Positions 4,864 through 27,096 of a stretch of 64,000 nucleotides of DNA are shown here, one piece after another. The DNA lies in contig JAKQBN010000055.1 in NCBI GenBank assembly GCA_029559475.1, forward strand, positions 92,031 through 156,030, written 5' to 3'. Numbering within the stretch: position 1 is the first letter of the stretch; each line of letters opens with the position of its first letter. Source of the stretch: a bacterium. Lineage in GTDB: Bacteria; UBA4055. A program made the translations under genes and the position numbers. A model generated the notes under the pieces. It ran no database searches, was not told the origin of the DNA, and saw only the letters and a list, made by a program, of their open reading frames with translations.

Positions 4864-4864
4864 T

Positions 4865-9134: not shown

Positions 9135-9213
9135 TTTCTCCGTTTTTTTATCTTTAATTTACTTTAAATCCGTTCTGATTGCAATAAAATATTTTTGAGT
9201 GTATATTTCACGC

Positions 9214-9660
9214 ATGAAGATATTTATTGACGGCGATGCTCTGCCGAACATACTTAAGCCGATCATTGTGAGATCGGTTGAGCGTTTGAACCTTACGGCT
9301 GTTACTGTTTCAAATAAGCCTGTGAGGATAGGCAAAACGGAAAATTTTATTTATATTCTTGTCGGTTCAGGGGCTGATGTTGCGGATGATAAGATAGCGG
9401 AGATGGTTGAGGCTGGTGATCTTGTTATTACGGGCGATGTTCCTCTGGCTGACCGCGTTATTTCAAAAAACGCATTTGCGATAGACCACCGCGGTAAATT
9501 TTTCGATGCGGATAATATTAAATTCTTTCTTTCTGTGCGCGATCTGATGCAGGGTGCGCGTGACAGCGGGATCCAGACAAGCGGTCCGGCGCCATATTCT
9601 CAGAAAGACGCGCACGAATTCGCGAACCAGTTCAATAATATTCTGTCCAAGCACGTGTGA
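9214..9660 (+). CDS. yaiI: YaiI/YqgE-like UPF0178 (DUF188) protein
   Basis: MKIFIDGDALPN...VGSGADVADDKIAEMVEAGDLVITGDVPLADRVI matches the YaiI family pattern (MKIWVDADACP...DVAD..I...V..GDLVIT.D.PLA). The ORF could also start at 9199. Confidence 0.7.
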   Translation: MKIFIDGDALPNILKPIIVRSVERLNLTAVTVSNKPVRIGKTENFIYILVGSGADVADDKIAEMVEAGDLVITGDVPLADRVISKNAFAIDHRGKFFDADNIKFFLSVRDLMQGARDSGIQTSGPAPYSQKDAHEFANQFNNILSKHV

Positions 9661-9781
9661 TTGCTATTTTAGATACAAACTTACCCGTTACCGTCTTCGC
9701 CCGCCTGTACGTGTTTGTTATAAAGTAGTAATTAGCCTGATGCGCCAGGGTGAGTTTTTAGATAAATATAGCAATCATACT

Positions 9782-10963
9782 TTAAAGTACTCTCAATACC
9801 AGACCTTTCAGATATTCGGTCTCGGGAACGGATACGCTGACGGGATGATCTGATGCCTGATGAAGCTGCTCAAGTATCTGGACAGTCCTTCCGGAATCTT
9901 TGGCCGAGTAAGCGATCATCTCCTTGAACATTTCCGGCGTGAAATTACCTGAACAGGAGAACGTGAACATTAAACCGCCTTTTTTAACGAGCCTCATCGT
10001 ATTGAAATTCAGGTCTTTATAGGCTCTCATGGCTTTGATCTCATCCTTCTTTTTCGGCATGAGTTTAGGCGGATCGAGAATTATTACATCGAACTGCTTT
10101 TTCTGCTGATGCAGCTCTCTTATATATTCAAAACAGTCTTTTTCGGCGGTATCAGGATCATTAAAACCGTTCAGTCTGAAATTGACTTTAGCGGCCGTAA
10201 GAGCTTCGGCAGATGAATCGCAGAGGGTAATATCACCGGCACCATTAAAGGCAGCGGTTAGTCCGAATCCTCCGGTGAATGAAAATAGATCGAGCACGCA
10301 ATCACCCTTTTTTATGTATTTTTTTAAAATTGCGCGGTTGTTTCTCTGATCCGCATAAAATCCCGTCTTCTGAGATGTTATGTCGACTTTATATTTTATT
10401 CCGTTCTCTCTGATAGTGATTTTATCGGGCATTGTTCCAAATAGAACTCCAATCGAATTCGCCAGCCCTTCCATTTTTCTGCCATCTCCGTCGCTTTTTT
10501 CATAAATGCAGCTGACCGCAGGGATCTCTTCCGTCAATATTTTTACTATTGTCTGTTTATCTCTATCCATGCCTGAGGTGTGCGACTGAAGAACGAGTGT
10601 GTCCGCGAATTTATCAACGATCAAGCCGGGCAGAAAATCGCCTTCAGAGAATATCAGCCTGAATGAATCGGCGTCTTTTGAATCAAAAAGGCTTTTTCTG
10701 AGAGCGATCGCGGAAATGATCTTTTCCCTGAACCAGGCTTCATTTACATGCTTGTTCTCATTCCATTCCAGCAGTCTGATAACTATACCGGACGTAGGAT
10801 TATAATGACCGTAAGCAATAAATTTTCCTTCATGCGTTCTTACGCAGACGACTTCGCCGGCTTCAGGGCTGCCTTCGATCCTATTCACCGCCCCTGAAAA
10901 GATATAGGAATGTCTGTTCAGCGGCTGTTTTTCTTTACCTTTATGTAAGGTCGCGTATATCAT
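9782..10963 (-). CDS. rlmI: class I SAM-dependent 23S rRNA (m5C) methyltransferase, RlmI/RlmK-like (PUA + MTase)
   Basis: Start at MIYATLHKGKEKQPLNRHSYIFSGAV (like E. coli RlmI [27 protein letters not shown]). SAM-binding VLDLFSFTGGFGL and DPPK motif region. The ORF track extends to 11014. Confidence 0.8.
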   Translation of the reverse strand: MIYATLHKGKEKQPLNRHSYIFSGAVNRIEGSPEAGEVVCVRTHEGKFIAYGHYNPTSGIVIRLLEWNENKHVNEAWFREKIISAIALRKSLFDSKDADSFRLIFSEGDFLPGLIVDKFADTLVLQSHTSGMDRDKQTIVKILTEEIPAVSCIYEKSDGDGRKMEGLANSIGVLFGTMPDKITIRENGIKYKVDITSQKTGFYADQRNNRAILKKYIKKGDCVLDLFSFTGGFGLTAAFNGAGDITLCDSSAEALTAAKVNFRLNGFNDPDTAEKDCFEYIRELHQQKKQFDVIILDPPKLMPKKKDEIKAMRAYKDLNFNTMRLVKKGGLMFTFSCSGNFTPEMFKEMIAYSAKDSGRTVQILEQLHQASDHPVSVSVPETEYLKGLVLRVL

Positions 10964-11107
10964 TGTTACTCCGTAAATAATGTTCAAATTAAGTAAAATC
11001 CCGTTCAATTGCAATTTGAAAAACTTTTTTTAATAATTAAGAATTTCCTGTTTGCATTATCGGTTAATGTCAAATATATTCCTTTAAATAAAACTCAAAG
11101 GCTTATC

Positions 11108-11515
11108 ATGTGGACCTGTCCTGACTGCGGACGCAGTTTTAAGAACAAAAACCAGAAGCATTCATGCTCGGTTTTTGACGTGGCGGACCATTTCAATAAA
11201 AGGCCGCCTTTGATAAAGGATATATATAATAAACTGATAGATTCCGTCAGACCTTTCGCAGAATTCGACATAGGCGCGGTAAGATCGGCGATATTTTTCA
11301 GATCCGGAACGACGTATATTGAGATCAAGCCGAAAAAACAATGCCTGAGCATTTATTTCTATCTTGACGAGAAAACCGACGATACAGTAATAAAAAGCGG
11401 CCTTGAGATATCCGAACGCAGGATCGTTCACACCGCGGATCTTTTTAAACCGGACGACGTTAACAAAACGCTTTTAGCACATTTGAAAAGATCATACGAA
11501 CTGATATGTATGTAA
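11108..11515 (+). CDS. DUF5655-like zinc-finger hypothetical protein
   Basis: Likely start MWTCPDCGRSFKNKNQKHSC (CxxC...HxC zinc ribbon). The ORF track extends upstream to 11009. Confidence 0.45.
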   Translation: MWTCPDCGRSFKNKNQKHSCSVFDVADHFNKRPPLIKDIYNKLIDSVRPFAEFDIGAVRSAIFFRSGTTYIEIKPKKQCLSIYFYLDEKTDDTVIKSGLEISERRIVHTADLFKPDDVNKTLLAHLKRSYELICM

Positions 11516-11536
11516 TAATATAAACGAGTAAAGCCA

Positions 11537-14362
11537 ATGTGCATTCAATCGGAAGCGACTTTAGAGAAAAAACTCATCGAGCAGCTTGAAATTCAGGGCT
11601 ATGAAAAGGTCATTCTGCATGATGAAAAAGATCTTATTTCGAATTTTAAGACGCAGTTGGAAAAGCACAATAAGACGATTTTTTCGAAATCAGAGTTTAA
11701 TAAGATACTCAATCATTTAGACGGCGGAACGATATTCGAGAAATCGAAAAAGCTGCGCAATAAGTTCGAGCTTTACAGAGATGTCGGCACTCTTTCCTAC
11801 ATAGAATTTTTTAATACAGAAGAATGGTGCAAGAACGAATTTCAGGCATCAAACCAGATAAATTTGGCGGAAAGGTACAAGAACCGCTACGATGTGACGA
11901 TCCTGATAAACGGGCTGCCTCTCGTTCAGATCGAACTTAAAAGGCGCGGGATCGAGCTCAAAGAGGCATTCAATCAAATATGCCGCTATAAAGATCATTC
12001 GTTCAGGGGACTCTTTTTATACCTCCAGCTTTTCATCATCTCGAACGCGGTCAACACAAGATATTTTGCGAATAACAGAACGCTTAATTTTAAGCAGAGC
12101 TTCTGCTGGACGGATGAGAAGAATGAAAAATTCAACAGGCTGAACGAATTCGCCGATATTTTCCTGGAAAAATGCCATCTCGCCAAGATCATTTCAAAAT
12201 ATGTCGTCCTGAACGAATCCGATAAATTTTTAATGGTGCTCAGGCCATATCAATATTACGCGGCTGAAAAGATAATCAAGCGCGTAGCCGGAAAAGTTGA
12301 CCGGAACGGCTATATCTGGCACACGACCGGATCAGGCAAGACGCTCACTTCATTCAAGGCGAGCCAGATACTGACCGCTGACAAGGATGTGGACAAGGTC
12401 GTCTTTGTCGTTGACAGGAAAGATCTCGACTTCCAAACCATGAAGGAGTTCAATAAATTCTCGAAAGGCTCGGTTGATGCGACTGACGACACCATAATGC
12501 TCGTTAAACAGCTTTCCGACGAAAAGACGAAGCTTATCATAACAACGATACAGAAGCTCAACAATGCGGTCAGCAGGGTCAAATTCAACAATAAACTCGG
12601 CGACGTATCTAATAAGCGTATAATATTTATTTTTGACGAATGCCACAGGAGCCAGTTCGGCGAAACCCACAAAAGGATAAAAGATTATTTTAAGAACAGG
12701 CTTTTCTTCGGCTTTACGGGCACTCCGATATTCGAGGAGAACAGCGTAGGGTTTACGACTACGAAAGATCTTTTCGGGTCATGCCTGCACAAATATATCA
12801 TCAAGGACGCAATAGACGACGATAATGTGCTCGGTTTTTCCGTCGAGTACTATTCCACTTTCAGGTCAAAACTTCTAAAGGAAGAGAACGGGGATGATCT
12901 CGACGTGGATGAAATGGATAAGGTAAAAGGCATCAACAAAGATGAGGTGTTTTCAGCGGATGTCAGGCTGTCAAACATAGTTGATTTTATCATAAAGAAT
13001 CACGACAGAAAGACATATAACAAGGAATACAACGCGATATTCGCGGTAAGCTCAATTGAGACGCTTTTAAAATACTATGAGCTTTTCAGGAAGAAAAAGC
13101 ATAACTTAAACATAGCGACGATCTTTTCATATCAGGCGAACGAGGAGCTTGAGGATCAATACGGCAACCATAACGAGAGAGAGAACTGGAGCATGGTGGC
13201 TGAGGAGAGAGCACCTTACGGCGATAAGCAGGTTCATTCGAGAGAAAAGCTCGATCTGATCGTGAACGATTATAACAAAACTTTCAAGACGAACTTCGAC
13301 CTGAACAAGGACAACGGCTTCAACGCATATTTTGTGGATGTTTCCAAAAAGGTGAAGGAAAAGAAGATAGACATTCTACTTGTGGTCAACATGTTCTTAA
13401 CGGGATTCGACAGCGTTTTCACCAATACTCTGTATGTGGATAAGAACCTGCGCTATCACGGGCTTATTCAGGCATTTTCGAGAACGAACAGGGTGCTTGG
13501 GGAAAAGAAGAAATACGGCAATATCGTCTGCTTCAGAAACCTCAAGAAGAGAACAGACGAAGCGATAGTTTTATTTTCTAATCCCGATGCGATAGAAACC
13601 GTTTTAATGAAAGCCTACACGGAATACGCTGCAGATTTTAACAAAGCTCTCGAAGAGCTAAAAAACATCACACCGACAATAGATTCGGTTGACAAGCTCG
13701 AAGGCGATGAGCAGAAAGCACTTTTCGTCAAAGCTTTCAGGAACCTTTTACGGATCATGAACAGGCTTGTGACCTTCACCGAATTCAAATATGACGATCT
13801 GACCATTACAAGGCAGGAATTTGAGGATTACAGGAGCAAATATTTAGACATCCGCGACGAAACGAAAGACCCTGATAAGGAATCTATCTTAAAAGACCTC
13901 GATTTTGAGGTCGAACTTGTGCGCAGGGACGATATCAATGTGGATTATATCTTAAAGCTGTTAAAAGACCTCGACATGAACGATTCCGGATTTGTTAAAG
14001 ACGTGGAATTTATCTTAAAGACCATGGAAGGCTCGGACGAACTCCGCAGCAAGCGCGAACTGATCGAAAGGTTCATTAAGGAAAACCTGCCGGAATTAGG
14101 CACAGACGCGAATGTGGAGGAAGAATTCGACAAATTTATCTCGGTCGAAAAGGAAAAAGAGATAGGGGAGATGATAAGATCAGAAAAGCTGAACAAAGAA
14201 CTCGTTTACGCAGTGGTCGAGGAATATGAATTTTCGAACAAATTCCAGCGCGATAAGATCAAATCGGCACTCGTCGGCAACCTTAAACTCTCGGAACGGA
14301 AAAGAAAGATCGAACAATTGGAAAACAGCATAGAAAGCATCGTGAATAAATATAAATGGTAG
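11537..14362 (+). CDS. hsdR: Type I restriction enzyme R subunit (HsdR)
   Basis: 941 aa. N-terminal HsdR region (LEKKLIEQLEIQGYE), helicase motif I HTTGSGKT, DEAH-like FIFDECHRS, and a C-terminal helical domain. Confidence 0.9.
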   Translation: MCIQSEATLEKKLIEQLEIQGYEKVILHDEKDLISNFKTQLEKHNKTIFSKSEFNKILNHLDGGTIFEKSKKLRNKFELYRDVGTLSYIEFFNTEEWCKNEFQASNQINLAERYKNRYDVTILINGLPLVQIELKRRGIELKEAFNQICRYKDHSFRGLFLYLQLFIISNAVNTRYFANNRTLNFKQSFCWTDEKNEKFNRLNEFADIFLEKCHLAKIISKYVVLNESDKFLMVLRPYQYYAAEKIIKRVAGKVDRNGYIWHTTGSGKTLTSFKASQILTADKDVDKVVFVVDRKDLDFQTMKEFNKFSKGSVDATDDTIMLVKQLSDEKTKLIITTIQKLNNAVSRVKFNNKLGDVSNKRIIFIFDECHRSQFGETHKRIKDYFKNRLFFGFTGTPIFEENSVGFTTTKDLFGSCLHKYIIKDAIDDDNVLGFSVEYYSTFRSKLLKEENGDDLDVDEMDKVKGINKDEVFSADVRLSNIVDFIIKNHDRKTYNKEYNAIFAVSSIETLLKYYELFRKKKHNLNIATIFSYQANEELEDQYGNHNERENWSMVAEERAPYGDKQVHSREKLDLIVNDYNKTFKTNFDLNKDNGFNAYFVDVSKKVKEKKIDILLVVNMFLTGFDSVFTNTLYVDKNLRYHGLIQAFSRTNRVLGEKKKYGNIVCFRNLKKRTDEAIVLFSNPDAIETVLMKAYTEYAADFNKALEELKNITPTIDSVDKLEGDEQKALFVKAFRNLLRIMNRLVTFTEFKYDDLTITRQEFEDYRSKYLDIRDETKDPDKESILKDLDFEVELVRRDDINVDYILKLLKDLDMNDSGFVKDVEFILKTMEGSDELRSKRELIERFIKENLPELGTDANVEEEFDKFISVEKEKEIGEMIRSEKLNKELVYAVVEEYEFSNKFQRDKIKSALVGNLKLSERKRKIEQLENSIESIVNKYKW

Positions 14363-14369
14363 GCAATAA

Positions 14370-15917
14370 ATGACAAAGCAGAAGCTCGAACGGAAATTAT
14401 GGGACATAGCGGACACTTTACGCGGAAATATGGGTGCGGATGAATTCAGGGACTATATTCTCGGCTTTATTTTTTATAAATTCTTATCGGAAAAGATCGA
14501 AAAATTCGTTTCAGATGAGCTTAAATCGGACAAATTGAGCTTTGAAGAGGCTATGAAGGATAAAGAGCTTTCGCATGACTTAAAAGAGGAATGTATCGAA
14601 GATATGGGCTTTTTTATCGAACCGGCAAACTTATTCAGCAGGATAGCGGAAAGGGCAAAGAACAGAGAGTTTATTATTGAAGATCTCGGCCGCGCTTTAA
14701 AATCGGTAGAGGAAGCCACCATCGGGCATAAGAGCGAGGAGGATTTCGCGGGGCTTTTTGAGGATGTTGATCTTACTTCGACAAAGCTCGGAAGAACGGT
14801 TGAACAGAAGAACAAGCTCATTTCGGAAGTTATCAAGCACATAGCGGAAGTTGATTTCAGGCTTGAGGATACGGAGGCGGATGTTCTCGGCGACGCTTAT
14901 GAATATCTGATCTCACAGTTCGCGAGCGGAGCGGGAAAGAAAGCGGGAGAGTTCTATACGCCCCAGCAGGTATCAAAAATACTGGCAAAGATCGTCACTA
15001 CGGGCAAGACAAGGCTAAAATCTGCTTATGACCCAACATGCGGCTCGGGATCTTTACTTTTGAGGGTATCGAAGGAATGTAAAGTATCGGACTTCTACGG
15101 GCAGGAATTAAACACCACCACTTTCAACCTGGCGAGAATGAATATGATTCTCCATTCGGTCAAATACAACGATTTTCACATAACGCAGGGAGACACTTTA
15201 GAAGAACCGCACGACCTCGACAAACGCTTTGAGGCAGTGGTAGCCAATCCGCCATTCTCCGCGCACTGGGCGGCAAACCAGACCTTCTTATCGGACGAAA
15301 GATTCAGCCCGTACGGAAAACTCGCGCCCAAAACAAAGGCGGACTTCGCATTCGTTCAGCACATGCTCTATCAGCTTGACGAAAACGGAACAATGGCAAT
15401 AGTCTTACCTCACGGAGTACTATTCAGAGGAGCAGCGGAAGGCGAGATCAGAAAATACATCATAGAGGAAAAAAACTGGCTCGATGCCGTCATCGGACTA
15501 CCCGCGAACATCTTTTACGGAACATCAATACCCACAGTCATACTAGTATTCAAAAAATGCAGAACAGAATCCGACAGCATACACTTCATAGATGCAAGCC
15601 GGTCTTACGAAAAAGCCAAAAATCAGAACAATTTACGCGATGAAGATGTCGAAAAGATCATAAGCACATACAGGAACAGAACTCAGGAAGAAAAATACTC
15701 GCACTCAGCCTCAATAGAACAGATCAGGCAGAACGACTACAACCTAAACATTCCCAGATATGTCGATACATTCGAAGAGGAAGACGAAATTGACCTCGAT
15801 AAGATCGCGCAGGAACTCAAAAACATCGAAGCTGACATAAAACTCACAGACAAAAAGATCATCGCGCAGTGCAAAGAACTCGGAATCACCCCGCCCGTGT
15901 TTGGAGGAGAAAAATGA
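14370..15917 (+). CDS. hsdM: Type I R-M system N6-adenine DNA methyltransferase subunit (HsdM)
   Basis: 515 aa. HsdM N-terminal domain (KLWDIADTLRG), SAM motif DPTCGSGSLL and catalytic VVANPPFS (NPPF). Confidence 0.9.
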   Translation: MTKQKLERKLWDIADTLRGNMGADEFRDYILGFIFYKFLSEKIEKFVSDELKSDKLSFEEAMKDKELSHDLKEECIEDMGFFIEPANLFSRIAERAKNREFIIEDLGRALKSVEEATIGHKSEEDFAGLFEDVDLTSTKLGRTVEQKNKLISEVIKHIAEVDFRLEDTEADVLGDAYEYLISQFASGAGKKAGEFYTPQQVSKILAKIVTTGKTRLKSAYDPTCGSGSLLLRVSKECKVSDFYGQELNTTTFNLARMNMILHSVKYNDFHITQGDTLEEPHDLDKRFEAVVANPPFSAHWAANQTFLSDERFSPYGKLAPKTKADFAFVQHMLYQLDENGTMAIVLPHGVLFRGAAEGEIRKYIIEEKNWLDAVIGLPANIFYGTSIPTVILVFKKCRTESDSIHFIDASRSYEKAKNQNNLRDEDVEKIISTYRNRTQEEKYSHSASIEQIRQNDYNLNIPRYVDTFEEEDEIDLDKIAQELKNIEADIKLTDKKIIAQCKELGITPPVFGGEK

Positions 15918-17035
15918 AATATGATAAACTTATAGAAATACTTGAGACAACTCATTCAGATATGCAGTATCAGGCTTTCAGATCCGTTGATATTGCGTTA
16001 ATTATCCGTAACTGGCTGTTCGGATTTTATCTGGTCGAATATGAGCAGAACGGTGAAGACAGGGCTGAATACGGCGCAAGGCTGATTGAAAATATCTCCC
16101 AAGATTTAAGAAACAAAGGTGTCAAAGGCGTTTCACCCACAAATCTGAAAAAGGACAGAGAGTTTTATATTGAGTATAAACAAATTCGACAGACAGTGTC
16201 CGTCGAATCTTTGGTTCAGCCTCAAAAAAAAGCAACCTCAGGCACAAATATCCAAATTCGACAGTCAGTGACCGTCGAATTGGCAAAACAATTCAAATTA
16301 AGCTGGACGCATTATGTTAGTCTGTTGACCATTGACGATATAAATGAAAGAAAATTCTACGAGATAGAATCGATAAACAATTCGTGGGGCGTAAGAGAAC
16401 TCAAAAGACAGATCGCTTCTTCGTTGTATCAGCGGCTTTCAGTCAGTAAGAATAAGGCTAAATTGAAACAGCTGTCTCAAAAAGGTCAGATCATTGAAAA
16501 ACCTGAAGATTTCATAAAAGATCCGTTTATACTTGAATTTGCCGGAATAAAAGAAAAGAGCCGGTACTCAGAATATGATCTTGAAACAGCGCTTATAAAC
16601 AAACTGGAAATGTTCCTTTTAGAGCTTGGCAAAGGCTTTTTATTCGAGGCAAGACAGAAAAGATTCACATTTGACGATGACCATTATTATGTTGATCTCG
16701 TATTTTACAACAGACTGCTTAAATGTTATGTTCTGATTGATCTCAAGCGCGATAAACTTACGCATCAGGATCTCGGTCAGATGCAGATGTATGTGAACTA
16801 TTTTGACAGATATGTTAAGCTTAAAGATGAAAATCCGACAGTCGGGATCGTATTGTGCCACAGGAAAAATGACGCTTTAGTAGAACTCACACTCCCTGAA
16901 AATTCTAATATATTCGCTTCAAAATACAAATTATATTTACCGACAAAGGAAGAATTAAAACGGCAGCTTGTAAAAGAAATAGGTATGGTCAAAGAAGAAA
17001 TGGCACTTTACGGAACTCAGCGGAAAGGAGAATAA
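15914..17035 (+). CDS. DUF1016/YhcG-like PD-(D/E)XK nuclease-domain protein embedded in the Type I R-M operon
   Basis: ATG at 15914 overlaps the hsdM stop (ATGA). The C-terminus carries a PD-(D/E)XK-like core (YYVDLVFYN ... YVLIDLKRD) and the N-terminal helical DUF1016_N-like region. Confidence 0.65.
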   Translation: MKYDKLIEILETTHSDMQYQAFRSVDIALIIRNWLFGFYLVEYEQNGEDRAEYGARLIENISQDLRNKGVKGVSPTNLKKDREFYIEYKQIRQTVSVESLVQPQKKATSGTNIQIRQSVTVELAKQFKLSWTHYVSLLTIDDINERKFYEIESINNSWGVRELKRQIASSLYQRLSVSKNKAKLKQLSQKGQIIEKPEDFIKDPFILEFAGIKEKSRYSEYDLETALINKLEMFLLELGKGFLFEARQKRFTFDDDHYYVDLVFYNRLLKCYVLIDLKRDKLTHQDLGQMQMYVNYFDRYVKLKDENPTVGIVLCHRKNDALVELTLPENSNIFASKYKLYLPTKEELKRQLVKEIGMVKEEMALYGTQRKGE

Positions 17036-17887
17036 ATGAAATCAGATTTTCAGAAATACTTGAACAAACAGAACAGCGGAGCATTAAACGACTTTGACGG
17101 ACTTTCACCCGACACAATGCACAACATTCTGTATTCATCCTTCCAGAAAAACGGCCTGATCCGGATTAACGCGGACATATCGGCTGAAGCTATAAATCAG
17201 GTGCCTGTCTTCAAGCTCGTCAAACATTTTATGCGGATACTTGAGCGTGAAAAACAGATAAAGCTCACACAGGCCGAATACCTGCCTCCAAAGTATGTGA
17301 AGGAACTTTACGAAAGCACCGTACTCAAAGATGACGCGGTTGAAAGTGGAATAGTAAAGCTTACAGGCGAAAAAGATGTCATTATCATATTTGTTGCCCG
17401 CATTCTGGCCAAGTTATGCGGATATACAAAATTGAGGAACAATGTTATAACTATAACAAAAGCAGGCGAACAGGCACTAACCGACGATCGGGAGCTATAT
17501 TTCGGGTTAATGGACGCTCTCATATCTAAATTCAACTGGGGATTTGAATCCGTCAGACAGGACGACGGTTTCATCCAAAGGTCAGTCGGCTACACTTTAT
17601 ACCTTCTCAAAAAGTACGGGAACGAATACAGGGAATCAAGATATTACTACAACAAGTTCTTTAAAGCTTTCCCCGCCTCAATGAACGCGTTCGATTTCGA
17701 TCCCGATCCAAAATATAAGACCATGTCTCACTGGTGGGCTTACCGTAACAGAATATTCAGAACATACCTGACATACATGGGCGCGGTCGAATACGAGATC
17801 ATCTATAATAAAGAGGAACACACCGAGACCGATCAGGTCAGAAAAACAAAATTGTTCGATGAAATATTCACAATAAACATAAAATAA
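17036..17887 (+). CDS. hypothetical protein (283-aa ORFan) embedded between the YhcG-like gene and hsdS
   Basis: Long ORF in operon context. ATG directly abuts the upstream stop and the gene lies 11 nt before hsdS. No recognisable motif. Confidence 0.5.
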   Translation: MKSDFQKYLNKQNSGALNDFDGLSPDTMHNILYSSFQKNGLIRINADISAEAINQVPVFKLVKHFMRILEREKQIKLTQAEYLPPKYVKELYESTVLKDDAVESGIVKLTGEKDVIIIFVARILAKLCGYTKLRNNVITITKAGEQALTDDRELYFGLMDALISKFNWGFESVRQDDGFIQRSVGYTLYLLKKYGNEYRESRYYYNKFFKAFPASMNAFDFDPDPKYKTMSHWWAYRNRIFRTYLTYMGAVEYEIIYNKEEHTETDQVRKTKLFDEIFTINIK

Positions 17888-17898
17888 GAACAGAAATA

Positions 17899-18996
17899 AT
17901 GAAAAGCCATTCAGATAAAAACACAAAACAACCAAAACTCCGCTTCCCCGGTTTCACAGAAGAGTGGCAGGAAAAAAGACTGGGGGAAATTGGGAAAATA
18001 ACTACGGGTAGCACTCCGAGCACTTTCGTAGAAAAATACTATAACGGGGAATACCTATTCGTATCTCCTTTCGATATTAGTGATAAGAAATATATTTTTA
18101 CTACACAAAAAACGCTTACTGAAGAGGGATTTAAGAAAACAAGAAATATCAAAAAATGCAGTGTATTATTTGTTTGTATAGGTTCGACAATAGGAAAAAT
18201 TGCCGTAGCGGGTACGGATTTAGCGACAAATCAACAAATCAATGCAATAACATGCGAGCATGAAGCCCAGAACGAATTTGTTTATTACTCGTTATTGAAG
18301 AAAGCAGATCAAATAAAACTCATGGCTGGAGAGCAAGCCGTTCCGATAATAAATAAATCAAACTTTGAAACTGTTAAGTTACCAATGACTTCACCAGCAG
18401 AACAAAAGAAGATCTCAGAATTCCTTTCCGACATAGACACAAAGATCGAAAAACTCACCCGCAAAAAAGAACTCACCGAGCAGTACAAAAAAGGAGCAAT
18501 GCAAAAAATCTTCTCGCAGAAAATCCGCTTCAAAGATGATAACGGAAAAAATTATCCTGACTGGCAAGAAAAGAGGCTGGGTGAGGTGGCTACGATAAAA
18601 AGAGGAGCAAGCTCTCAATATTTAAAATATGTTAATAATTCTTCTGAAGGTGTAAGGCTGATTAGAATCACTGATTTCTTAGAAAGTGAACCAGTATTTA
18701 TCAAGGAGAGTCTAGAATTAGATAGGTTCAAACTAAAAAAAGATGATATCCTTATTGCAGGTACTGGAGCAACAGCAGGTATTACTTTCAAAGTACCAGA
18801 TAAATTTATCGGTATGGTTTATAGCTATAACGTTCCTCAGATCACTCCTGTTTCATGTGATCCTAATTATTTAATTCAATTTCTCAAGTCCGATTCGATC
18901 TCTAAACAACAAGAAGGTTTATTTACAGGTAATGCACAGCATTTTTTAGACATAAAGGCAATTTCAAACTTGAAATTACCTTTACAATGTGCATAA
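17899..18996 (+). CDS. hsdS: Type I R-M specificity subunit (HsdS), C-terminally truncated at the IS21 junction
   Basis: Two target-recognition domains, each preceded by the conserved LRFPGFTEEWQEKRLGE / IRFKDDNGKNYPDWQEKRLGE segment. Central conserved helix VKLPMTSPAEQKKISEFL...KIF. The protein ends at LKLPLQCA*, where the C-terminal conserved helix should begin. The stop TAA at 18994-18996 abuts the IS terminus. Confidence 0.8.
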   Translation: MKSHSDKNTKQPKLRFPGFTEEWQEKRLGEIGKITTGSTPSTFVEKYYNGEYLFVSPFDISDKKYIFTTQKTLTEEGFKKTRNIKKCSVLFVCIGSTIGKIAVAGTDLATNQQINAITCEHEAQNEFVYYSLLKKADQIKLMAGEQAVPIINKSNFETVKLPMTSPAEQKKISEFLSDIDTKIEKLTRKKELTEQYKKGAMQKIFSQKIRFKDDNGKNYPDWQEKRLGEVATIKRGASSQYLKYVNNSSEGVRLIRITDFLESEPVFIKESLELDRFKLKKDDILIAGTGATAGITFKVPDKFIGMVYSYNVPQITPVSCDPNYLIQFLKSDSISKQQEGLFTGNAQHFLDIKAISNLKLPLQCA

Positions 18997-19115
18997 TTCT
19001 TGCGAAAGTGACCAGTCAATTCCTGTCAAAGTGTTACAGATAATCTGATATAAAATAAAAGTTTTCCACTTCAAGAACTCCTATTATATTCGCTCCGAAC
19101 AAAAGAGGAGCGGAT

Positions 19116-20747
19116 ATGTCAAACAGGAGGCTTGATATGATAAATGTTCAACACCTGATACGGCAACTGGCTGAAGGCAAGTCGTATCGGGTAATAGGCA
19201 CAAATCTGGCGATATCGCCGACAACTGTCAAGAAATATGCGAAGTATATCAGAAAGAACGGTCTTAATGTCGAAGAGCTTAAGGGAAAACCGCCATCCGA
19301 GCTGGAGACTATTATAGACATAGCGGATCCTGCAGAAAGGCAACGAGCGGAAGAAGCTTTAACATGTATCAGGAAACATGAAAGTTCTTTGGTTGCAAGG
19401 CGGCTGACACGAAAAGATGTCTATGAAAAATATAGAATAGATATAGAATCTCCTCTAAGCTACAGCCGTTTCTGCGTAAAAGTAGAAGATGAACTTAAGA
19501 AAAGCGGCGCAACAATGCACTTTAATCACAAGCCAGGCGACAAGCTGTTCGTTGACTTTGCCGGAGACAAGCTGTGTTATTATGAAAAAGAGACAGGCGA
19601 GAAGATATCTGTTGAGGTCTTTGTGGCTGTTCTCGGACACAGTCAGAAGACCTTTGTCTTTGCGGTACATAGCCAGTGTAAAAACGATTTTATAGAGTCA
19701 CTTAAGCGTGCGTTCGAATACTACGGAGGTATACCATGCGCGATAGTACCGGACAATCTGAAATCAGGCGTAAATAAAGCAAGCTTATATGAACCTGAAA
19801 TGAACAGGAGCTTCAAACACTTTTGTGAACATTACGGCTGTTTTGCTTATCCCGCAAGGCCGCGTTCTCCAAAAGACAAGAGCCTTGTCGAGAATGCCGT
19901 AGGCAGAATGTACAGAGACATTTACACGCACATAAAAGCCTGTAAATACTACTCGATGGAAGAGTTGAATGCGGCTATACTTGAAAAGCTTGAAGAATCG
20001 AACAATAAACCGTTCCAGCGTCGTGATTACAGCAGAAATGATCTTTTTGAAAGTAATGAAAAGGACTGCCTTAAGCCGTTGCCTTCAAACGAATATGAGA
20101 CAGTAGATTTTTACAGTGCCACAGTCAGGCGCGATTATCATATCTGGTTCAGGCCTGACAAGCACCAGTACAGCGTACCTTATGAATACATAGGCAAAAC
20201 ATTAAAAGTTATTTACAATACAGATACCGTAGAGATATTTTACGGATACACAAGAATAGCCTTGCATAAGAGAAACAGATCAAGATACGGCTTTACCACA
20301 AACCCTGAACATATGCCGGCAAATCATAAATACATGGCTGATCTTACTCCTGAAAATCTGATGAAGAAAGCTGAAGAAATAGGCGTTTATACATCATCTG
20401 TAATCGAAAAAATACTCGGATCAGGCAACTATTATGATCAGAGAATAAGAAGCTCAAGAGGAGTACTGTCGCTTGCAAATAAGCTCGGAAAAGAAATTAT
20501 GGAACAGTGCTGTAAACGGGCTTTATCATACGGTATTTATAATTACAGACAGCTAAGAAACATAGCGGATATGAAGCTGTATCTTGAAGAAGATATAACC
20601 GTAACCGGCGGGTATATAGACAACCATCAAAACAAGAGAGGTGTTGAATATTATTTTGCGACACTTTTACAGGAATCGTGTGACACTTTGACAAGAATCA
20701 GCTACAATAATACAGAAATACAAACGAAAACGGAGGCGGAATGTTAA
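19116..20747 (+). CDS. istA: IS21-family transposase IstA
   Basis: 543 aa. N-terminal HTH (SYRVIGTNLAISPTTVKKY) and a DDE integrase core (FVDFAG...CAIVPDNLKSG...ENAVGRMYRD...) typical of IstA. Confidence 0.85.
   Translation: MSNRRLDMINVQHLIRQLAEGKSYRVIGTNLAISPTTVKKYAKYIRKNGLNVEELKGKPPSELETIIDIADPAERQRAEEALTCIRKHESSLVARRLTRKDVYEKYRIDIESPLSYSRFCVKVEDELKKSGATMHFNHKPGDKLFVDFAGDKLCYYEKETGEKISVEVFVAVLGHSQKTFVFAVHSQCKNDFIESLKRAFEYYGGIPCAIVPDNLKSGVNKASLYEPEMNRSFKHFCEHYGCFAYPARPRSPKDKSLVENAVGRMYRDIYTHIKACKYYSMEELNAAILEKLEESNNKPFQRRDYSRNDLFESNEKDCLKPLPSNEYETVDFYSATVRRDYHIWFRPDKHQYSVPYEYIGKTLKVIYNTDTVEIFYGYTRIALHKRNRSRYGFTTNPEHMPANHKYMADLTPENLMKKAEEIGVYTSSVIEKILGSGNYYDQRIRSSRGVLSLANKLGKEIMEQCCKRALSYGIYNYRQLRNIADMKLYLEEDITVTGGYIDNHQNKRGVEYYFATLLQESCDTLTRISYNNTEIQTKTEAEC
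20659..20698 (+). repeat. internal copy of the IS21 right-end double repeat, inside the istA 3' coding region
   Basis: gcgacacttttacaggaatcgtgtgacactttgacaagaatca is near-identical to the right terminus ctgtgacactttaaacaggaatcagtgggacactttgacaagaat. Confidence 0.6.
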
Positions 20748-21493
20748 ACGAAAATACATTGTCAAAAATGAAAGAGATGAACCTGACAGGAATGTATGAT
20801 GCATTTAAGCTAACTCTTAGCCTGAATGACTATAAGAAAATGACTTGCGATCAGCTAGCGGCATCTCTTGTTGACGCAGAATACGATAACAGGCGAAACA
20901 AAAGACTTGCCCAAAGGTTAAGTACAGCTAAGTTGCGTTATCCGGCATCAGCTGAACAGGTTGACTTTAATGCGGATAGAAAGCTCGATAGAAACCTGTT
21001 CATGAGACTTACAGACTGCAACTACATCAGACAGGCTGAGAATGTTATAATCAGCGGTATGACGGGCACAGGTAAAAGCTATATAGCCTGCGCATTAGGA
21101 CATCAGGCTTGTATAGCAGGATATAAAGTTATATATCACAACTTCAACAAACTCATGGCTAAGCTAGTAATGTCAAGAGGAGACAACTCGTATCTAAAGG
21201 AAATAAATAAGATAGCCGGCTACGATCTTTTAATCATAGATGACTTCGGCCTACAAACAATGGATCATGCCTCAAACATATCACTCCTTGAAATACTCGA
21301 AGACCGCTACGGCTCGAAATCTACGGTCATAGCTTCTCAGATCCCGCCTGAAAACTGGTATGCTCTCTTCAATAGCTCAACTATAGCTGATGCCTGCTTA
21401 GACAGAATAATACATAATGCGCATAAAATGGATATTACAGGGGAATCTATGAGAAAGAATAAAAAGGTTGCAGCGAAGAAAAAGAATGGTTAA
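20741..21493 (+). CDS. istB: IS21-family helper ATPase IstB
   Basis: 250 aa. Walker A GMTGTGKSY, Walker B LLIIDDFG. Overlaps the istA end by 7 nt, as is typical for IS21. Confidence 0.9.
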   Translation: MLNENTLSKMKEMNLTGMYDAFKLTLSLNDYKKMTCDQLAASLVDAEYDNRRNKRLAQRLSTAKLRYPASAEQVDFNADRKLDRNLFMRLTDCNYIRQAENVIISGMTGTGKSYIACALGHQACIAGYKVIYHNFNKLMAKLVMSRGDNSYLKEINKIAGYDLLIIDDFGLQTMDHASNISLLEILEDRYGSKSTVIASQIPPENWYALFNSSTIADACLDRIIHNAHKMDITGESMRKNKKVAAKKKNG

Positions 21494-21529
21494 ATTTTAA
21501 CGGGTTCAGGAGGTGGAAACTGTGACACT

Positions 21530-23323
21530 TTAAACAGGAATCAGTGGGACACTTTGACAAGAATCTACACCTGTATAATTCTGGCTGGTTTGAGAAGTGC
21601 TAACATTTGAGTAGGATCGCTGGCTTGGGCTAAAAGTATAACTCGATTTACTCGGAGTTATAACTCCTGTCCAGATATCTGTTGGAACAGATAATGAATA
21701 ATCACCGTTTGAATCTGTTGTTGTTGATACTATTCCATTGGTTCCTGATAACGTTACACCGCTTATTGTTGCGCCTGAGCTGTTTGTGATCCTGCCTGAA
21801 ATTACATTTGATGATTCACTAAAATTTAATTTAAAAGAATACGGAAAAGCGAATGTGTTTGCTGTGGCAGTTCCTATGATTTTTAAATAAATGTCACTGT
21901 TGTATAACAAAGAATATGAGAACTGAATGTTAGTGCTAAATGTACCGAATTTAACTTGAACTAGGCTGCCATTATTATTCTCATATAAATAGTACGTATT
22001 CACACCTGAAGCGTTTGGATAAAGATTGACGGTGACACTACCTGGTTTGTTATTGATATATCTATACATATCTTGATCTGATGAACCGCCTCCTGATTGA
22101 ATAGTTACTGATCCATTATATTCTATATTGTTGCTTATCGTATATGCCAATTCTTTAGTTGATGGTTCATCCATTCCTCGGATTAAATGACGGTAAGCGT
22201 CACATTCATCATTATGCTCTAAATTTACATTTAAAGTGTCAGATATATTCAAAGGTACAATATTACCAGTTTCATTTCTTAAATACTGGCGACTATATAA
22301 AACACAGCCATCACCAGGATCTTGAGGAATTGGATTCAACCAGTTCGCTGGGTTCTCACCATCATGTGAATTAGAAGCTATCCAAGTATACCGAATATTT
22401 GGTGGTAATGGCATATTAGTATTATAACTAAACGAAGCACTACTTAAGTTGAGACCGACAATGTTCGAATTAATAGCACTATCGCAGTTGATGTCCCTAT
22501 TAAAATAATCATCCAATGAACTAGACCATTCTTTACCACCAAATAGATAAATTCCGTCTGCGCCAGCATCAAAAGAATATTTCAAATCTCGCATAGCTTC
22601 AGAATGTATATTTGGTGGTGTTTCAGATTTCTGATCGTAATACTTTGTATTAGAAGGATCGAATCCTGAGTTTGATCCAAGATGAGGTGTCCCTATAGTA
22701 ACTACTCGTGCAACTTTGTGTCCGTTTATGTTATCAGAAGGATTTACCCACCACTTATGATTAGTGCTTGTTGTACCGTCTATTGTTCTTTGGAGATATT
22801 CTCTTATAGCAAGGCCACCCATAGAATGCCCAACTAGTATTACTTTCTCCGAGTTCGTAAAATCGATTACTTCAGTTATCATTTTACTTAACGCATATCC
22901 CTGCTTAAAAATCGCCGATTCATTGCTATGGTCAAACTGATCATTCCACCACCCATCTGCTGCCTTTATTCTTTCTTCTTTGAAATTGATCGCAAAAATA
23001 TAAGAATCTGGATCCCAATCATACAAACTATAATTAAATCTTCGTGGTCCAAGTATTATTGTTTTATCACCATATACTGTATCAGACCATTTGACATCGT
23101 TTTCGAGCACAGAAGTATCGTTAGCATTATCGAAATTTAGTATAACATCATATGAATTTATGTTTCCCCAATCGTAATTACCACTATTCAAATAATTCAT
23201 CGTTTCTTGAAATGACTCATCGCTACCGACTAGTCCGTGAACGAAAATAATAGGATATGGAGGTTTTGCTCCATAAATTAATGTTGTTAACACGATAATG
23301 AGAATCAACAATATTTTCTTCAT
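21530..23323 (-). CDS. secreted lipase/esterase (alpha/beta hydrolase, PGAP1-like) with a C-terminal carboxypeptidase-regulatory-like domain. The C-terminus is supplied by the IS21 end.
   Basis: Signal peptide MKKILLILIIVLTTLIYGA. Nucleophile elbow ILVGHSMGGLAIREY. C-terminal ITNSSGATISGVTLSG...TTDSNGDYSLSVP is CarbopepD_reg-like. The last 11 codons (DSCQSVPLIPV*) are encoded by the IS21 right terminal repeat. Confidence 0.7.
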   Translation of the reverse strand: MKKILLILIIVLTTLIYGAKPPYPIIFVHGLVGSDESFQETMNYLNSGNYDWGNINSYDVILNFDNANDTSVLENDVKWSDTVYGDKTIILGPRRFNYSLYDWDPDSYIFAINFKEERIKAADGWWNDQFDHSNESAIFKQGYALSKMITEVIDFTNSEKVILVGHSMGGLAIREYLQRTIDGTTSTNHKWWVNPSDNINGHKVARVVTIGTPHLGSNSGFDPSNTKYYDQKSETPPNIHSEAMRDLKYSFDAGADGIYLFGGKEWSSSLDDYFNRDINCDSAINSNIVGLNLSSASFSYNTNMPLPPNIRYTWIASNSHDGENPANWLNPIPQDPGDGCVLYSRQYLRNETGNIVPLNISDTLNVNLEHNDECDAYRHLIRGMDEPSTKELAYTISNNIEYNGSVTIQSGGGSSDQDMYRYINNKPGSVTVNLYPNASGVNTYYLYENNNGSLVQVKFGTFSTNIQFSYSLLYNSDIYLKIIGTATANTFAFPYSFKLNFSESSNVISGRITNSSGATISGVTLSGTNGIVSTTTDSNGDYSLSVPTDIWTGVITPSKSSYTFSPSQRSYSNVSTSQTSQNYTGVDSCQSVPLIPV

Positions 23324-23528: not shown

Positions 23529-24854
23529 TTATATGAACTGATGTCTGTGTTCGGGATATACTAGAGATGGGGTACTGATCTGTCGGATCATCTGGTCGGC
23601 CTGAGCCTTTATTTCATGATAGCCGTTCTTTTGTGCCAGCTCGATGGACTTTTTGTAACATTCAACAGCTTTTTCAGTATTATAAAGTTCTTTTACGATC
23701 AGTCCGCAGTTCAGGTAGAATAATGCTAAAGCTTTTTCGTCATTGAGCGATGATACAATGCTGTGCGCCTTATTTAAATGATAGATAGAATTTTTACTGT
23801 CCTTAATGATCCTGTGACAGTCCGAATAGAGCATATATATCTGGTATCTGTACAGGTTCTGTCTGTCGGCCGGCAGAGAACGGATCCTGAGTAAAGCGGA
23901 TTTTAAAAGGTATTTTGTCGTCTCGGAATTGCTTCGGATGATCGATATCTTTGATCTTTTGATTATGGCATTTATCAGCAGCTCATCATCGGATCCTGAA
24001 CCTTCAAGAATGTGGATCAGTTTCTCGCAGATATTGTCTGAAGTCTCGTGATTTTTATTCTTTCTGTGCTGGACCGCGGCGCTGTACTTTGCTTTAAGAT
24101 CGCTTATCGTTTTTTCAGTATCGAAAAAATTCCCGCAGTCATACACGATGTCTGAATGCATGGTCATGTTGACTTTTTTTATAAAACTTTTGAATTTATT
24201 TGATTTTAACGCGGATCTTTCCAGAATTATCTGATTGTTCAAAGAGACCGTAGCCAACGAATCGAAAAGGAAATCACAGATGTTCTCGTATCTTGTCCTT
24301 TCTTTTAAATAATTATATTTTTTTAGGGAAAAATTAACATATTTTCTTATCTCTTTATAATGTTTCAGAATAAATTCTATATCTTTGTATCTGCTTCTAT
24401 CAACATCGAATATTTCGCAGGATTTATCTATAAATAGCCTTTTTATTCTGATCCCCGATCTTTTGCAGTCTGAAATGAATTGAGCTATGAACTGACTTAG
24501 GATCCGTTTTTCTTTTACGGGCGAATATGCGCAGAATACAAATCCGTGATTAATGTCTTTTATGAGATATCTGAATACAGGTTTTTCTTTTTGCAGCGGA
24601 TACAGTTCCGATACTTTTAATACAAGTTCTGAAAGCGGACTGCCGTTAGCCTTATAATTATCGTTTCCGTCTTCTTTTTTCTTTTGACTTTTATTCTTTG
24701 AAAGAAGACCGTTCTTTTGTGAGTTGATCCAGTTTCTTATTGTTCGCGGAGTTATCCCGTGAATTTCTGCAAGTTTTTTTATTTTTTTTCTGCTCGTAGC
24801 CTGTTTTATAACTTTCAGCTTTTCCTCGACGGACTTACGCATAATAATGCTCAT
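23529..24854 (-). CDS. HTH-domain + TPR-repeat protein (paralog A). Its transposase-like N-terminal region is speculative.
   Basis: 441 aa. N-terminal HTH KLKVIKQATSRKKIKKLAEIHGITPRTIRNWI. Central region conserved with the upstream paralog (FRYLIKDINHGFVFCAYS, YENICDFLFDS). C-terminal TPR-like helical repeats. Confidence 0.55.
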   Translation of the reverse strand: MSIIMRKSVEEKLKVIKQATSRKKIKKLAEIHGITPRTIRNWINSQKNGLLSKNKSQKKKEDGNDNYKANGSPLSELVLKVSELYPLQKEKPVFRYLIKDINHGFVFCAYSPVKEKRILSQFIAQFISDCKRSGIRIKRLFIDKSCEIFDVDRSRYKDIEFILKHYKEIRKYVNFSLKKYNYLKERTRYENICDFLFDSLATVSLNNQIILERSALKSNKFKSFIKKVNMTMHSDIVYDCGNFFDTEKTISDLKAKYSAAVQHRKNKNHETSDNICEKLIHILEGSGSDDELLINAIIKRSKISIIRSNSETTKYLLKSALLRIRSLPADRQNLYRYQIYMLYSDCHRIIKDSKNSIYHLNKAHSIVSSLNDEKALALFYLNCGLIVKELYNTEKAVECYKKSIELAQKNGYHEIKAQADQMIRQISTPSLVYPEHRHQFI

Positions 24855-24978
24855 TTTAATTTTCGGTTAATGTTTTATAAGCAAAATTTAATGCATAAAA
24901 AAGCTGAATTCAATTATTGCCGGATATTTTTATATTTTTTCCGTTTTTAGCTATGTTTTTAAAAATATGAAATAACTT

Positions 24979-27096
24979 TTATACCTGATGCAACTCTAAT
25001 TGTTTTTTCACAAAGTACATCTGTTCTTCAGTATCGTATAATTTACTTTTTAGCAGTTCCTGCAGATAAATTTTATAAGCTTCTTTTTTGTTCGTCTTAT
25101 AAAAATCAGACTTTTTTTCTAATATTACTGAAGAATAAGCATAGAATTCATTTGAATCTGAATCTGCTTTCTTATTAAGGATTTTTAAATTCGCTTTTGC
25201 CTTTTTAAAATCTCCGGACTCTATGTGCAGTTCGATTAATACCGTCAAAGCTTTGAGATAAGGGAATGGATTTCCTTTTGTTGTCTTTGCTATTTCTATT
25301 GCTGATAATATTTCCGATTCAGCCTTTACGAACTTTTTTTCAATTTTTGAGATCATTCCGTTATATAAAGGCAAATTATACTTCTGTGAAGTATTATCCG
25401 TATTCTCCAAGAGCAGAGAAACCTCGGACAATCTGCTTTTTACATCGGAAATTCGTCCTGATTCAATTTCAGACAGACACAAATTCAGCATATTATCTAT
25501 AAGCGGTACTTTCAGGTTGTTTTTTTGCGATAATTCAATATTGTCTTCAAATATTTTCCCGGCTTTTAGAAATTCATTCATTTTTATATACGCCACGGCT
25601 TTGTTGCCCGATACAGGGATTCGAATGGTGGTCAGCACAGCAGGATTATCTGATCTGTCAATAATTTCAACGGACTTATCATAAGCTTTAATGCTTTCCG
25701 ATAATTTTCCCGCGATCTGAAGACAGTCTCCGTATTTTGCCCATAGAACTACTTTCTGAACGAACATGTTTTTATATAGATCATCGGCTATCATTTTTTC
25801 GTATAATTTTATTGCTTCTGAAGTATTACCTCTTTTTACGTTGTAATCAGCTTTATTCTCTTTTACCGCAAGAAGGATGTCGTCGAATTTATTCTTCTCG
25901 GCTAATACTTCGGACTTGAGTAAGAATTCTTCAGCTTTATCAAATGTACCTGTATTCTTATAAAATAGGGAATAATTTATGTAAAATATTGCCTTGTTCC
26001 TTTCATTGCTGTCTGCTTCAACTTGTCGTCTTGCTTTTTCAAAGAAATAAAGGCACTTTCTGTTTTCGTTTGTCAGTCTGTAAACATCCGCGTAAAGCAT
26101 ATAGCCTGCATACTTAAACCCGCTTATTTTATCAGCCGGAAGTAATTTCGCCATTTTCATAGCCTTCGAAAAGTATTTTCTTGCATTAACCATATCTTTT
26201 TTTAATGCATAGACCTTCCCTATCTGGATCAGTATTTTTGCGTACAGTTCCGAATAAGATCCCGAATCTTTTAAGATCACTTCTATCCTTCTGTAACGGT
26301 CATCCGAATTCACAAGATCGAATTTTTTATGGATTTCGAGAGCCTGATCGAACATTTTTGTCAGTATTTCGCCTGATCTGCTTTCGTCAAAGCTTTTAAC
26401 TTCATCGGAAAGAATAGCCGAATGATACTTTATGTTCAGCTTTTTTACAGATTCGAAACATTTGGAAGATTTTACAGCCTTATATTTTTCTAATGCTGTA
26501 TGATTGTTTTTTGCTGTCGTAGCCATAGAATCAAATAAAAATTCATTATTGTTTTCGTATTTTGTTCTTTCTTTCATAAAACTATTGTGCTTTGTTGTAA
26601 AAGTCAGATGTTTTTTGATCGAAGTGTTGTTAACGCAGGTCAGTATTGTGCCTGTAGATTTTAGATCACTAACATGATTTCTTTTATCTGTAATAATTTT
26701 CTTTACTGTTATTCCTGATTTTTTCAGGTCTGAAAGAAAGAGATTTAAAATTTCTTTGAAATATCCGTTAGAGTTGTCGGATGAATACGCGCATAGAATA
26801 AATCCGCGGTTTATATCTTTTAAAAGATGCCTGTAAACAGTTTGATCTTTCAGAACAGAATATACAAGTGAAACTTTATAAACCGATTCGCTGAAAGGTC
26901 CTGATATTTTTTTACTCTTTTGAGGACTTTTCGGATCAGGATCCTTTTTGCCGTTAAGTTCGCCTGCTTTGTAAAGCGCGATCCAGTTCTTTATGGTTTT
27001 TTCGGTAATCCCGTGCTGGATGGCGAGTTTCTTTATCAGCTTTTTACTTTTCGCCTGTTTTACGATCTCTAATTTCTCGATCAATGATCTGGTCAT
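24979..27096 (-). CDS. HTH-domain + extended TPR-repeat protein (paralog B)
   Basis: 705 aa. N-terminal ~230 aa are paralogous to 23529-24854 (KLEIVKQAKSKKLIKKLAIQHGITEKTIKNWI, YRHLLKDINRGFILCAYS, YENNNEFLFDS). These are followed by ~450 aa of TPR-like repeats. Confidence 0.55.
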   Translation of the reverse strand: MTRSLIEKLEIVKQAKSKKLIKKLAIQHGITEKTIKNWIALYKAGELNGKKDPDPKSPQKSKKISGPFSESVYKVSLVYSVLKDQTVYRHLLKDINRGFILCAYSSDNSNGYFKEILNLFLSDLKKSGITVKKIITDKRNHVSDLKSTGTILTCVNNTSIKKHLTFTTKHNSFMKERTKYENNNEFLFDSMATTAKNNHTALEKYKAVKSSKCFESVKKLNIKYHSAILSDEVKSFDESRSGEILTKMFDQALEIHKKFDLVNSDDRYRRIEVILKDSGSYSELYAKILIQIGKVYALKKDMVNARKYFSKAMKMAKLLPADKISGFKYAGYMLYADVYRLTNENRKCLYFFEKARRQVEADSNERNKAIFYINYSLFYKNTGTFDKAEEFLLKSEVLAEKNKFDDILLAVKENKADYNVKRGNTSEAIKLYEKMIADDLYKNMFVQKVVLWAKYGDCLQIAGKLSESIKAYDKSVEIIDRSDNPAVLTTIRIPVSGNKAVAYIKMNEFLKAGKIFEDNIELSQKNNLKVPLIDNMLNLCLSEIESGRISDVKSRLSEVSLLLENTDNTSQKYNLPLYNGMISKIEKKFVKAESEILSAIEIAKTTKGNPFPYLKALTVLIELHIESGDFKKAKANLKILNKKADSDSNEFYAYSSVILEKKSDFYKTNKKEAYKIYLQELLKSKLYDTEEQMYFVKKQLELHQV

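Follow-up and report, generated by a model that had tools for sequence, protein, structure and literature searches.

The window, that is, the whole stretch of 64,000 nucleotides analyzed here, carries a complete Type I restriction-modification (R-M) operon, as revealed by Pfam matches of the genes surrounding an open reading frame termed X. The gene order is DUF5655, hsdR-hsdM-DUF1016-X-hsdS and then istA/istB of an IS21-family element, with all R-M genes on the + strand (Table 1). X is an ATG-initiated frame on the + strand whose coordinates and length agree exactly with a preliminary description made from the sequence of this DNA; its placement inside a defense operon, also claimed there, was borne out.

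Table 1. Features of the operon, of X and of related loci (positions refer to the locus named in the first column).
Locus	Feature	Position	Strand	Remarks
Window	DUF5655 gene	11009-11515	+	Directly 5' of hsdR; Pfam
Window	hsdR, Type I restriction subunit	11537-14362	+	Pfam HSDR_N, SWI2_SNF2, EcoR124_C (EcoR124-type C-terminus)
Window	hsdM, Type I N6-adenine methyltransferase subunit	14370-15917	+	Pfam N6_Mtase 1.7e-111
Window	DUF1016/YhcG PD-(D/E)XK nuclease	15914-17035	+	Pfam DUF1016_N and YhcG_C; PADLOC candidate PDC-S02, 7e-131
Window	AGGAG Shine-Dalgarno of X	17026-17030	+	Within DUF1016 3' end, 5 nt before ATG
Window	Gene X	17036-17887	+	283 codons; soluble protein; divergent PF27146 (Y4jL_N) member by homology
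Window	X residues 1-84	17036-17287	+	N13...F20-x-G22-x-S24-P motif; first 'KLTxxG.LP' wing-like motif (76-84)
Window	X residues 85-147	17288-17476	+	Central winged helix, putative nucleic-acid-binding module; 'LTKKG' wing
Window	X residues 148-283	17477-17884	+	Most conserved family core: NW..D, LL.KYG, FY..K..AFP, R239
Window	hsdS, specificity subunit	17899-18996	+	Two target-recognition domains; Pfam Methylase_S, two stretches
Window	IS21-family element	19019-21564	+
Window	IS21 inverted repeats (16 nt)	19019-19034 and 21549-21564
Window	istA	19116-20747	+	Pfam rve/Mu-transpos_C_2
Window	istB	20741-21493	+	Pfam IstB_IS21
Window	Gene overlapped by IS21 right end	21530-23323	-
Window	Two neighboring paralogs	23529-27096	-	441 and 705 aa
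L030 (SLFX01000046.1, Delongbacteria)	Third DUF1016 allele	2148-2972		274 aa
L120	Compact defense-like island	3796-10694
L095	X-RhuM pair	4995-6930
L124 (E. coli IncN plasmid pECN580, NC_025183.1)	Stand-alone PRiA4_ORF3	7040-7585
L011 (UBP11 UBA4055)	Genes 3' of orthologous hsdS	10199-15871

The genes of the operon are tightly packed. The stop codon of hsdM is overlapped by the ATG of the DUF1016 gene (ATGA), the DUF1016 stop directly abuts the start of X (TAA/ATG, a gap of 0 nt), and hsdS follows X after 11 nt; the earlier remark that X has no gap on either side was therefore right upstream and nearly right downstream. A scan of the + strand from 14750 to 19200 found no terminator-like sites, and the motif D..IDLK is intact in the DUF1016 protein. 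Given these coupling signals, X would be translated from an hsdR-hsdM-DUF1016-X-hsdS mRNA by means of the stop/start abutment and its own Shine-Dalgarno sequence. At the 3' side of the operon, the inverted repeats of the IS21 element mark an insertion point 22 nt 3' of the hsdS stop; on its right side, the element runs into the 3' end of a minus-strand gene. The two minus-strand paralogs share an N-terminal HTH-like segment ('...KKLA..HGIT..TI.NWI...'), which is followed by long helical or TPR-like regions.

The protein encoded by X has a GRAVY value of -0.44 and zero transmembrane segments and is not of low complexity, just as the preliminary description had it. That the frame might be spurious, or a decaying pseudogene, would find its sole support in the empty scans of older libraries, and this reading is refuted to the point of retaining virtually no weight. 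Full-length orthologs of X exist at 60%-94% identity, three ortholog comparisons yielded dN/dS values of 0.27, 0.15 and 0.13, indicative of purifying selection, and the gene has a Shine-Dalgarno sequence, a confident predicted fold and thousands of homologs.

X had also been called an ORFan with no detectable motif. Scanned directly against Pfam, NCBIfam, PADLOC, PHROGs and PDB sequences, X gave nothing significant, and PADLOC-DB v2 returned 0 families at E ≤ 1. Pfam found no homology of X to HSDR_N/ResIII, N6_Mtase or Methylase_S, whereas the neighboring genes match strongly. The empty Pfam scans are due to the copy used, from which the PF27146 model is missing. A word-indexed search recovered 11 relatives only and by itself would have pointed wrongly to an ORFan; an exhaustive HMM search with the alignment of X and these relatives matched 2,270 cluster representatives (of 50%-identity clusters) at E ≤ 1e-3, of which 729 reach E ≤ 1e-30; the majority of the 2,270 are stand-alone proteins of 270-310 aa. 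The ORFan label is thus wrong, and the absence of a motif holds for the older libraries alone, as the fold is recognizable as multiple winged-helix domains (see below).

Searching with a 102-sequence family alignment yielded 294 annotated proteins, nearly all of which bear the precomputed label PF27146 (Y4jL_N); every one is named 'hypothetical protein' in its source, and the named organisms are mostly Bacteroidota. Among the broad-profile matches listed, the label is present in all but 2 of 120. The labeled relatives are 26%-37% identical to X over 86%-100% of its length (mostly 95%-99%). Two close orthologs, P0005 and P0007, are themselves annotated as PF27146; the precomputed label is plain for P0226, 'weak' for P0007, P0008 and P0209, and missing for P0003, P0004 and P0006. 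X shares with Y4jL_N proteins full-length homology, a length of ~285 aa, conserved motifs and the predicted fold, by which it is a divergent member of a large and functionally blank family. However, the clade to which X belongs (the window clade) is an outlier to the mainstream at ~30% identity, with weak or absent precomputed Pfam matches. The window is also set apart from the Bacteroidota mainstream in its probable origin from a Candidatus Delongbacteria genome, as contig SLFX01000046.1 matches it at 94%-97% nucleotide identity. Of eight among the near-invariant family residues, namely N13, T78, G81, Y92, E112, D172, Y204 and R239, X keeps six. The two clade substitutions, G81E (Gly in 92 of 102 sequences) and D172S (Asp in 94 of 102), suggest that these positions have changed in function or are under weaker constraint.

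PF27146 is an N-terminal domain family, named for Y4jL, a protein encoded on the symbiotic plasmid of Rhizobium sp. NGR234. Some members are fused, in either order, to a PRiA4_ORF3 domain (PF07929), or to TPR repeats, whereas X has no PRiA4_ORF3 domain. The family occurs on three Bacteroidota plasmids, and no homologs were found in phage genomes or viral contigs. In the literature searched, y4jL does not come up in any paper, and PRiA4_ORF3 has a single unrelated mention.

We predicted the structure of X with AlphaFold2 from the family alignment (pLDDT 86.3, pTM 0.84). Models of this kind, with pLDDT values of 86-88, consist of winged-helix modules only, and the predicted fold displays the topology of a helix-turn-helix followed by a beta-hairpin wing. 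The C-terminal core (residues 148-283) has a PadR-like winged-helix fold, in which a beta-hairpin accompanies a long helix of the recognition type. Residues 85-147 show an H-H-H-beta-beta pattern in the predicted secondary structure, and residues 25-84 contain a second 'KLTxxG' motif; the winged-helix assignment of these two segments is a prediction from secondary structure and motif rather than from superposition. Foldseek on the AlphaFold model, which the preliminary description had proposed, gave zero matches against the PDB at E ≤ 0.001 and no whole-chain fold match; likewise, a profile search of PDB sequences yielded no more than a chance hit (E = 0.17). A regular-expression scan of X for Walker A, HEPN, PD-(D/E)XK, HNH, GIY-YIG and Fic motifs was negative, X has no R-x(4-6)-H motif, and none of its His or Cys residues is conserved. 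With a model made of winged helices only, no catalytic motifs and no conserved His or Cys, X would therefore serve in binding or as an adaptor rather than as an enzyme. The proposal that X is a new effector accordingly finds no support, since it has no nuclease, ATPase, HEPN or Fic motif.

The modules of X differ in charge. The family median pI is 9.64 for the central module, which is basic, and 5.2 for the N-terminal region, which is acidic in most members, while the C-terminal winged helix is neutral. The conserved basic columns of the central module are K108, R122, K132, K/R 133, K/R 137 and K142. In the model, X would probably bind DNA through this basic central winged helix. Alternatively, winged-helix domains can act as protein-protein modules, and matches to cullin WHB, kleisin and kite domains were seen. 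Compared with PadR/MarR-type regulators, which are small dimers of 100-150 aa, X is ~285 aa long, has two or three winged helices per chain, shares only 5%-16% sequence identity and has no Pfam match; neither an operator site nor a regulated target is known for X. Tandem winged-helix subunits of the kite/kleisin type (JetB, ScpB and MukE, and the C-terminal winged helix of Scc1) are unlike X, which has no SMC or kleisin partner in its operon and neither resembles these subunits in sequence nor superposes on them globally (Foldseek TM ≤ 0.27).

Comparison of the operon with its closest counterparts revealed that, within the window clade, it appears in sequence as a recombination mosaic. In the R-M-linked orthologs (L005-L013; 62%-94% identity), X always lies after a DUF1016 gene and before hsdS. 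Against L011, however, the window shows identities of 95% for hsdR, 97% for hsdM, 32% for DUF1016, 86% for X and 40% for hsdS, and a gap of 87 nt separates DUF1016 from X in L011. Against L008, the values are 64% for hsdM, 92% for DUF1016, 88% for X and 52% for hsdS, with none for hsdR. In L030, hsdM and the start of X match the window at 94%-97% nucleotide identity, and between them lies a third DUF1016 allele, which lacks the PD-(D/E)XK core, although its 3' tail, the Shine-Dalgarno sequence and the abutting start of X are the same as in the window; recombination seems to have had a breakpoint within the 3' end of DUF1016. Given these allele swaps and the 86%-88% identity of X, X is the stable element of the operon, and its neighbors are exchanged or decaying. 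This pattern argues against a tightly co-evolved DUF1016-X pair and for selection on X itself.

The same comparison bears on the possibility that X is a dedicated partner of the DUF1016 nuclease, as a DNA-targeting subunit, a sensor or an inhibitor, the two genes forming a cassette within the R-M operon. The start of X abuts the DUF1016 stop or overlaps it by 4 nt in the window, L005-7 and L008-10; a DUF1016 allele lies 5' of X in every R-M-linked clade member in spite of allele replacement; and in L005-7 the pair persists amid degraded R-M genes. By analogy, X might act together with a Fic or RhuM effector elsewhere in the family, where effector-like genes lie directly 5' of X and in the same direction, namely RhuM in L071/74, Fic in L120, and Fic followed by a 50-aa frame in L042. 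A dedicated pair is at odds, however, with P0007, a 60% identical ortholog that stands solo 3' of an ftsZ cluster without DUF1016, and with L086, where X sits between hsdM and hsdS without DUF1016. The core-less allele preceding the X start in L030, and the 32% identical, 87-nt distant DUF1016 of L011, weaken the partner hypotheses further, and the great majority of family members and DUF1016 genes occur apart. We thus regard a dedicated nuclease partner as unlikely, yet worth keeping in sight.

To see how far the R-M setting extends, the neighborhoods of the family were compared. At 18 distant reference-genome loci there was no hsdR, hsdM, hsdS or DUF1016 within 6 kb, and the neighbors were a housekeeping mix, from which the association could have been taken as specific to the window clade. 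This was rejected, as a larger sample of 80 metagenomic loci of the mainstream subfamily, scanned with the narrower alignment A4 (the broad A3 being too diverse), showed independent R-M contexts. L086 is arranged as hsdR (EcoEI type)-hsdM-X-hsdS; in L063/64/72/75, X lies directly 5' of hsdR with hsdM and DUF1016 downstream; and in L078, hsdM and Fic are close to X. The island of L120 comprises DUF4172+Fic, X, a 939-aa Eco57I/TaqI_C Type IIG-like methylase and ApeA (HEPN_Apea), with 29 nt between Fic and X. L071/74 are ordered AAA_14/DUF4143-Fic-RhuM-X, the last two genes being 6 nt apart, and in L042 (Alkaliflexus) Fic_N+Fic and the 50-aa frame precede X. In L095, the X-RhuM pair splits an operon for a V-type ATPase, with the A/B subunits on one side and a V_ATPase_I-like gene on the other, and no transposase or integrase is visible nearby. 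Homologs in other defense contexts, the absence of which would have spoken against the preliminary description, thus exist as ~30% identical relatives found independently in R-M, Fic, RhuM and ApeA settings.

The frequency of such settings was assessed on lineages de-duplicated at 85% identity, 57 of which had usable flanks. Neighbors of the R-M, Fic, RhuM, DUF1016, AAA_14 or ApeA type were found in 13 of them and in none of the other 44, and Type I operon settings account for only 4 independent lineages. These genes make up 16 of 204 neighbors at ranks 1-2 versus 6 of 246 at ranks ≥3 (odds ratio 3.4, Fisher p = 0.014). Within this sample, neighborhood statistics of the kind advocated in the preliminary description show a significant concentration next to X, and about three quarters of the lineages without any such neighbor. 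Among 117 immediate neighbors, the most frequent Pfam families are HSDR_N (5), Por_Secre_tail (4), RhuM (3) and DUF5655 (3). DUF5655, which precedes hsdR in the window and is among these neighbors of distant X relatives, may be another R-M-linked passenger; jackhmmer seeded with the window DUF5655 did not recover the DUF5655 neighbors found by Pfam. In most cases, a family member stands alone amid housekeeping genes. The recurrent association of PF27146 with R-M, Fic, RhuM and DUF1016, which holds for a minority of loci, may be unreported so far.

The prevalence of solo loci would suit a protein without any tie to defense, namely a common cellular regulator or DNA-binding protein whose gene is a pure hitchhiker in recombination-prone loci. 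Solo copies lie, for instance, 3' of ftsZ, next to the genes for EF-G and an ECF sigma factor, or amid genes of metabolism; phage and viral copies were not found, and the gap between hsdM and hsdS is a known landing site of passengers (PMC9881135), such as rloA/B, which reside as Type I passengers in C. jejuni (PMC2928727). The conflict link may accordingly reflect no more than shared residence in variable regions. On the other hand, R-M-linked families top the tally of neighbors, the distance decay is significant, and the patchy phyletic spread with plasmid copies is ill-suited to a housekeeping role. In particular, tight and co-directional adjacency recurs in at least 5 independent lineages, which weakens the pure-hitchhiker hypothesis. 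We give it a minor chance of being right.

It is very unlikely that X assists or regulates the Type I enzyme itself, for instance by acting on HsdS/HsdM assembly, restriction alleviation or operon expression. X does lie directly 5' of hsdS both in the window clade and, independently, in L086, whose hsdR is of a different family (EcoEI_R_C type) from that of the window; it lies directly 5' of hsdR in the L063 group; and it is better conserved than hsdS and kept through operon recombination. Nevertheless, the small number of lineages in Type I operons is against this, R-M systems are absent from the 5-6 kb around most members, and X does not resemble the known controller (C) proteins. Controller proteins of R-M systems are small (~80-100 aa), have an Xre-type HTH and are encoded 5' of the genes under their control. 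As X has 283 aa, a mid-operon position and winged helices instead of an Xre-type HTH, it was rejected as a controller protein.

DUF1016, RhuM and Fic are standard passengers between the core Type I genes (PMC9881135; supported by PMC3424549), with odds ratios of 17 for DUF1016 and 14 for RhuM beside invertible specificity genes, and one operon listed carries 'a hypothetical protein' and Fic (PMC9881135). X occupies the same niche as restriction-linked passengers of Type I R-M operons (DUF1016/YhcG, RhuM, Fic/DOC, C. jejuni rloA-H and PrrC/RloC), being placed between hsd genes in a co-directional and tight manner, and outside R-M operons, too, it is found together with DUF1016, RhuM and Fic. 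By contrast, those passengers carry effector domains (nuclease, Fic fold, or ABC-ATPase plus anticodon nuclease), whereas X has none and is non-homologous to any of them. An anticodon nuclease of the PrrC/RloC type, in which an N-terminal ABC-ATPase (Walker A) is joined to a C-terminal nuclease motif, was rejected for X, in which Walker A, R-x(4-6)-H and a conserved His are lacking and no PADLOC or Pfam match was found. A Type II antitoxin, which would be paired obligately with a cognate toxin gene, was rejected as well, in view of the solo state of most members and of upstream toxin-like genes that vary (DUF1016, Fic, RhuM) or are absent. The paper on the SpxA1-TenA toxin-antitoxin pair was discarded as a parallel, being unrelated to any R-M-embedded cassette.

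Together, the data lead us to propose, tentatively and with a probability of about 0.45, that X is a non-catalytic protein of multiple winged helices, probably a DNA-binding accessory or passenger (a regulator or sensor) of the mobile PF27146 family, and not an effector. In this proposal, the basic central winged helix would bind nucleic acid, probably DNA, and the remaining modules would mediate self-association or partner contacts. PF27146 would be a horizontally mobile and self-sufficient passenger, usually solo, that has recurrently lodged in R-M operons as well as beside Fic, RhuM and DUF1016, all classic passengers of R-M systems. Both DNA binding and any defense role are what we infer from these patterns. 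The loss of G81 and D172 speaks against the proposal, as the function of X may have shifted in the window clade. Of the earlier view that an orphan in an R-M operon is a candidate effector or sensor, the orphan part has fallen, the effector part finds no support, and X may yet have a role as a sensor or DNA-binding accessory. In a bolder version, PF27146 would be a modular nucleic-acid-sensing 'reader' of winged helices and an interchangeable partner of DUF1016, Fic, RhuM or Type I/IIG R-M enzymes, with DUF1016-X as a back-up defense or abortive-infection cassette wired to the R-M system; we consider this quite unlikely.

If the association is functional, it offers the first functional handle on a family of >2,000 'hypothetical' protein clusters, and the Type I R-M passengers, a class that is still poorly understood, gain a member that is non-enzymatic and probably binds DNA. 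If it is not, the false lead of an ORFan and new effector is still removed, and the operon is still a clear example of modular recombination in a Type I R-M system, in which the passenger is steadier than its neighbors.

Two further observations concern related loci. The PRiA4_ORF3 domain alone is found in 2,862 plasmid records, 1,925 of them conjugative, and was considered as a marker of plasmid leading (anti-defense) regions. This was rejected, as the IncN example (L124) lies in a transposon and resistance region, where the stand-alone gene is located between two serine-recombinase genes and adjoins qnrS1 and ISKpn19. In L011, a second DUF1016 copy precedes hsdR, and the segment 3' of the orthologous hsdS encodes an FGE-sulfatase, a DUF1883+TIR protein, an AAA_15 ATPase and two unknown genes, which looks like a further defense island.
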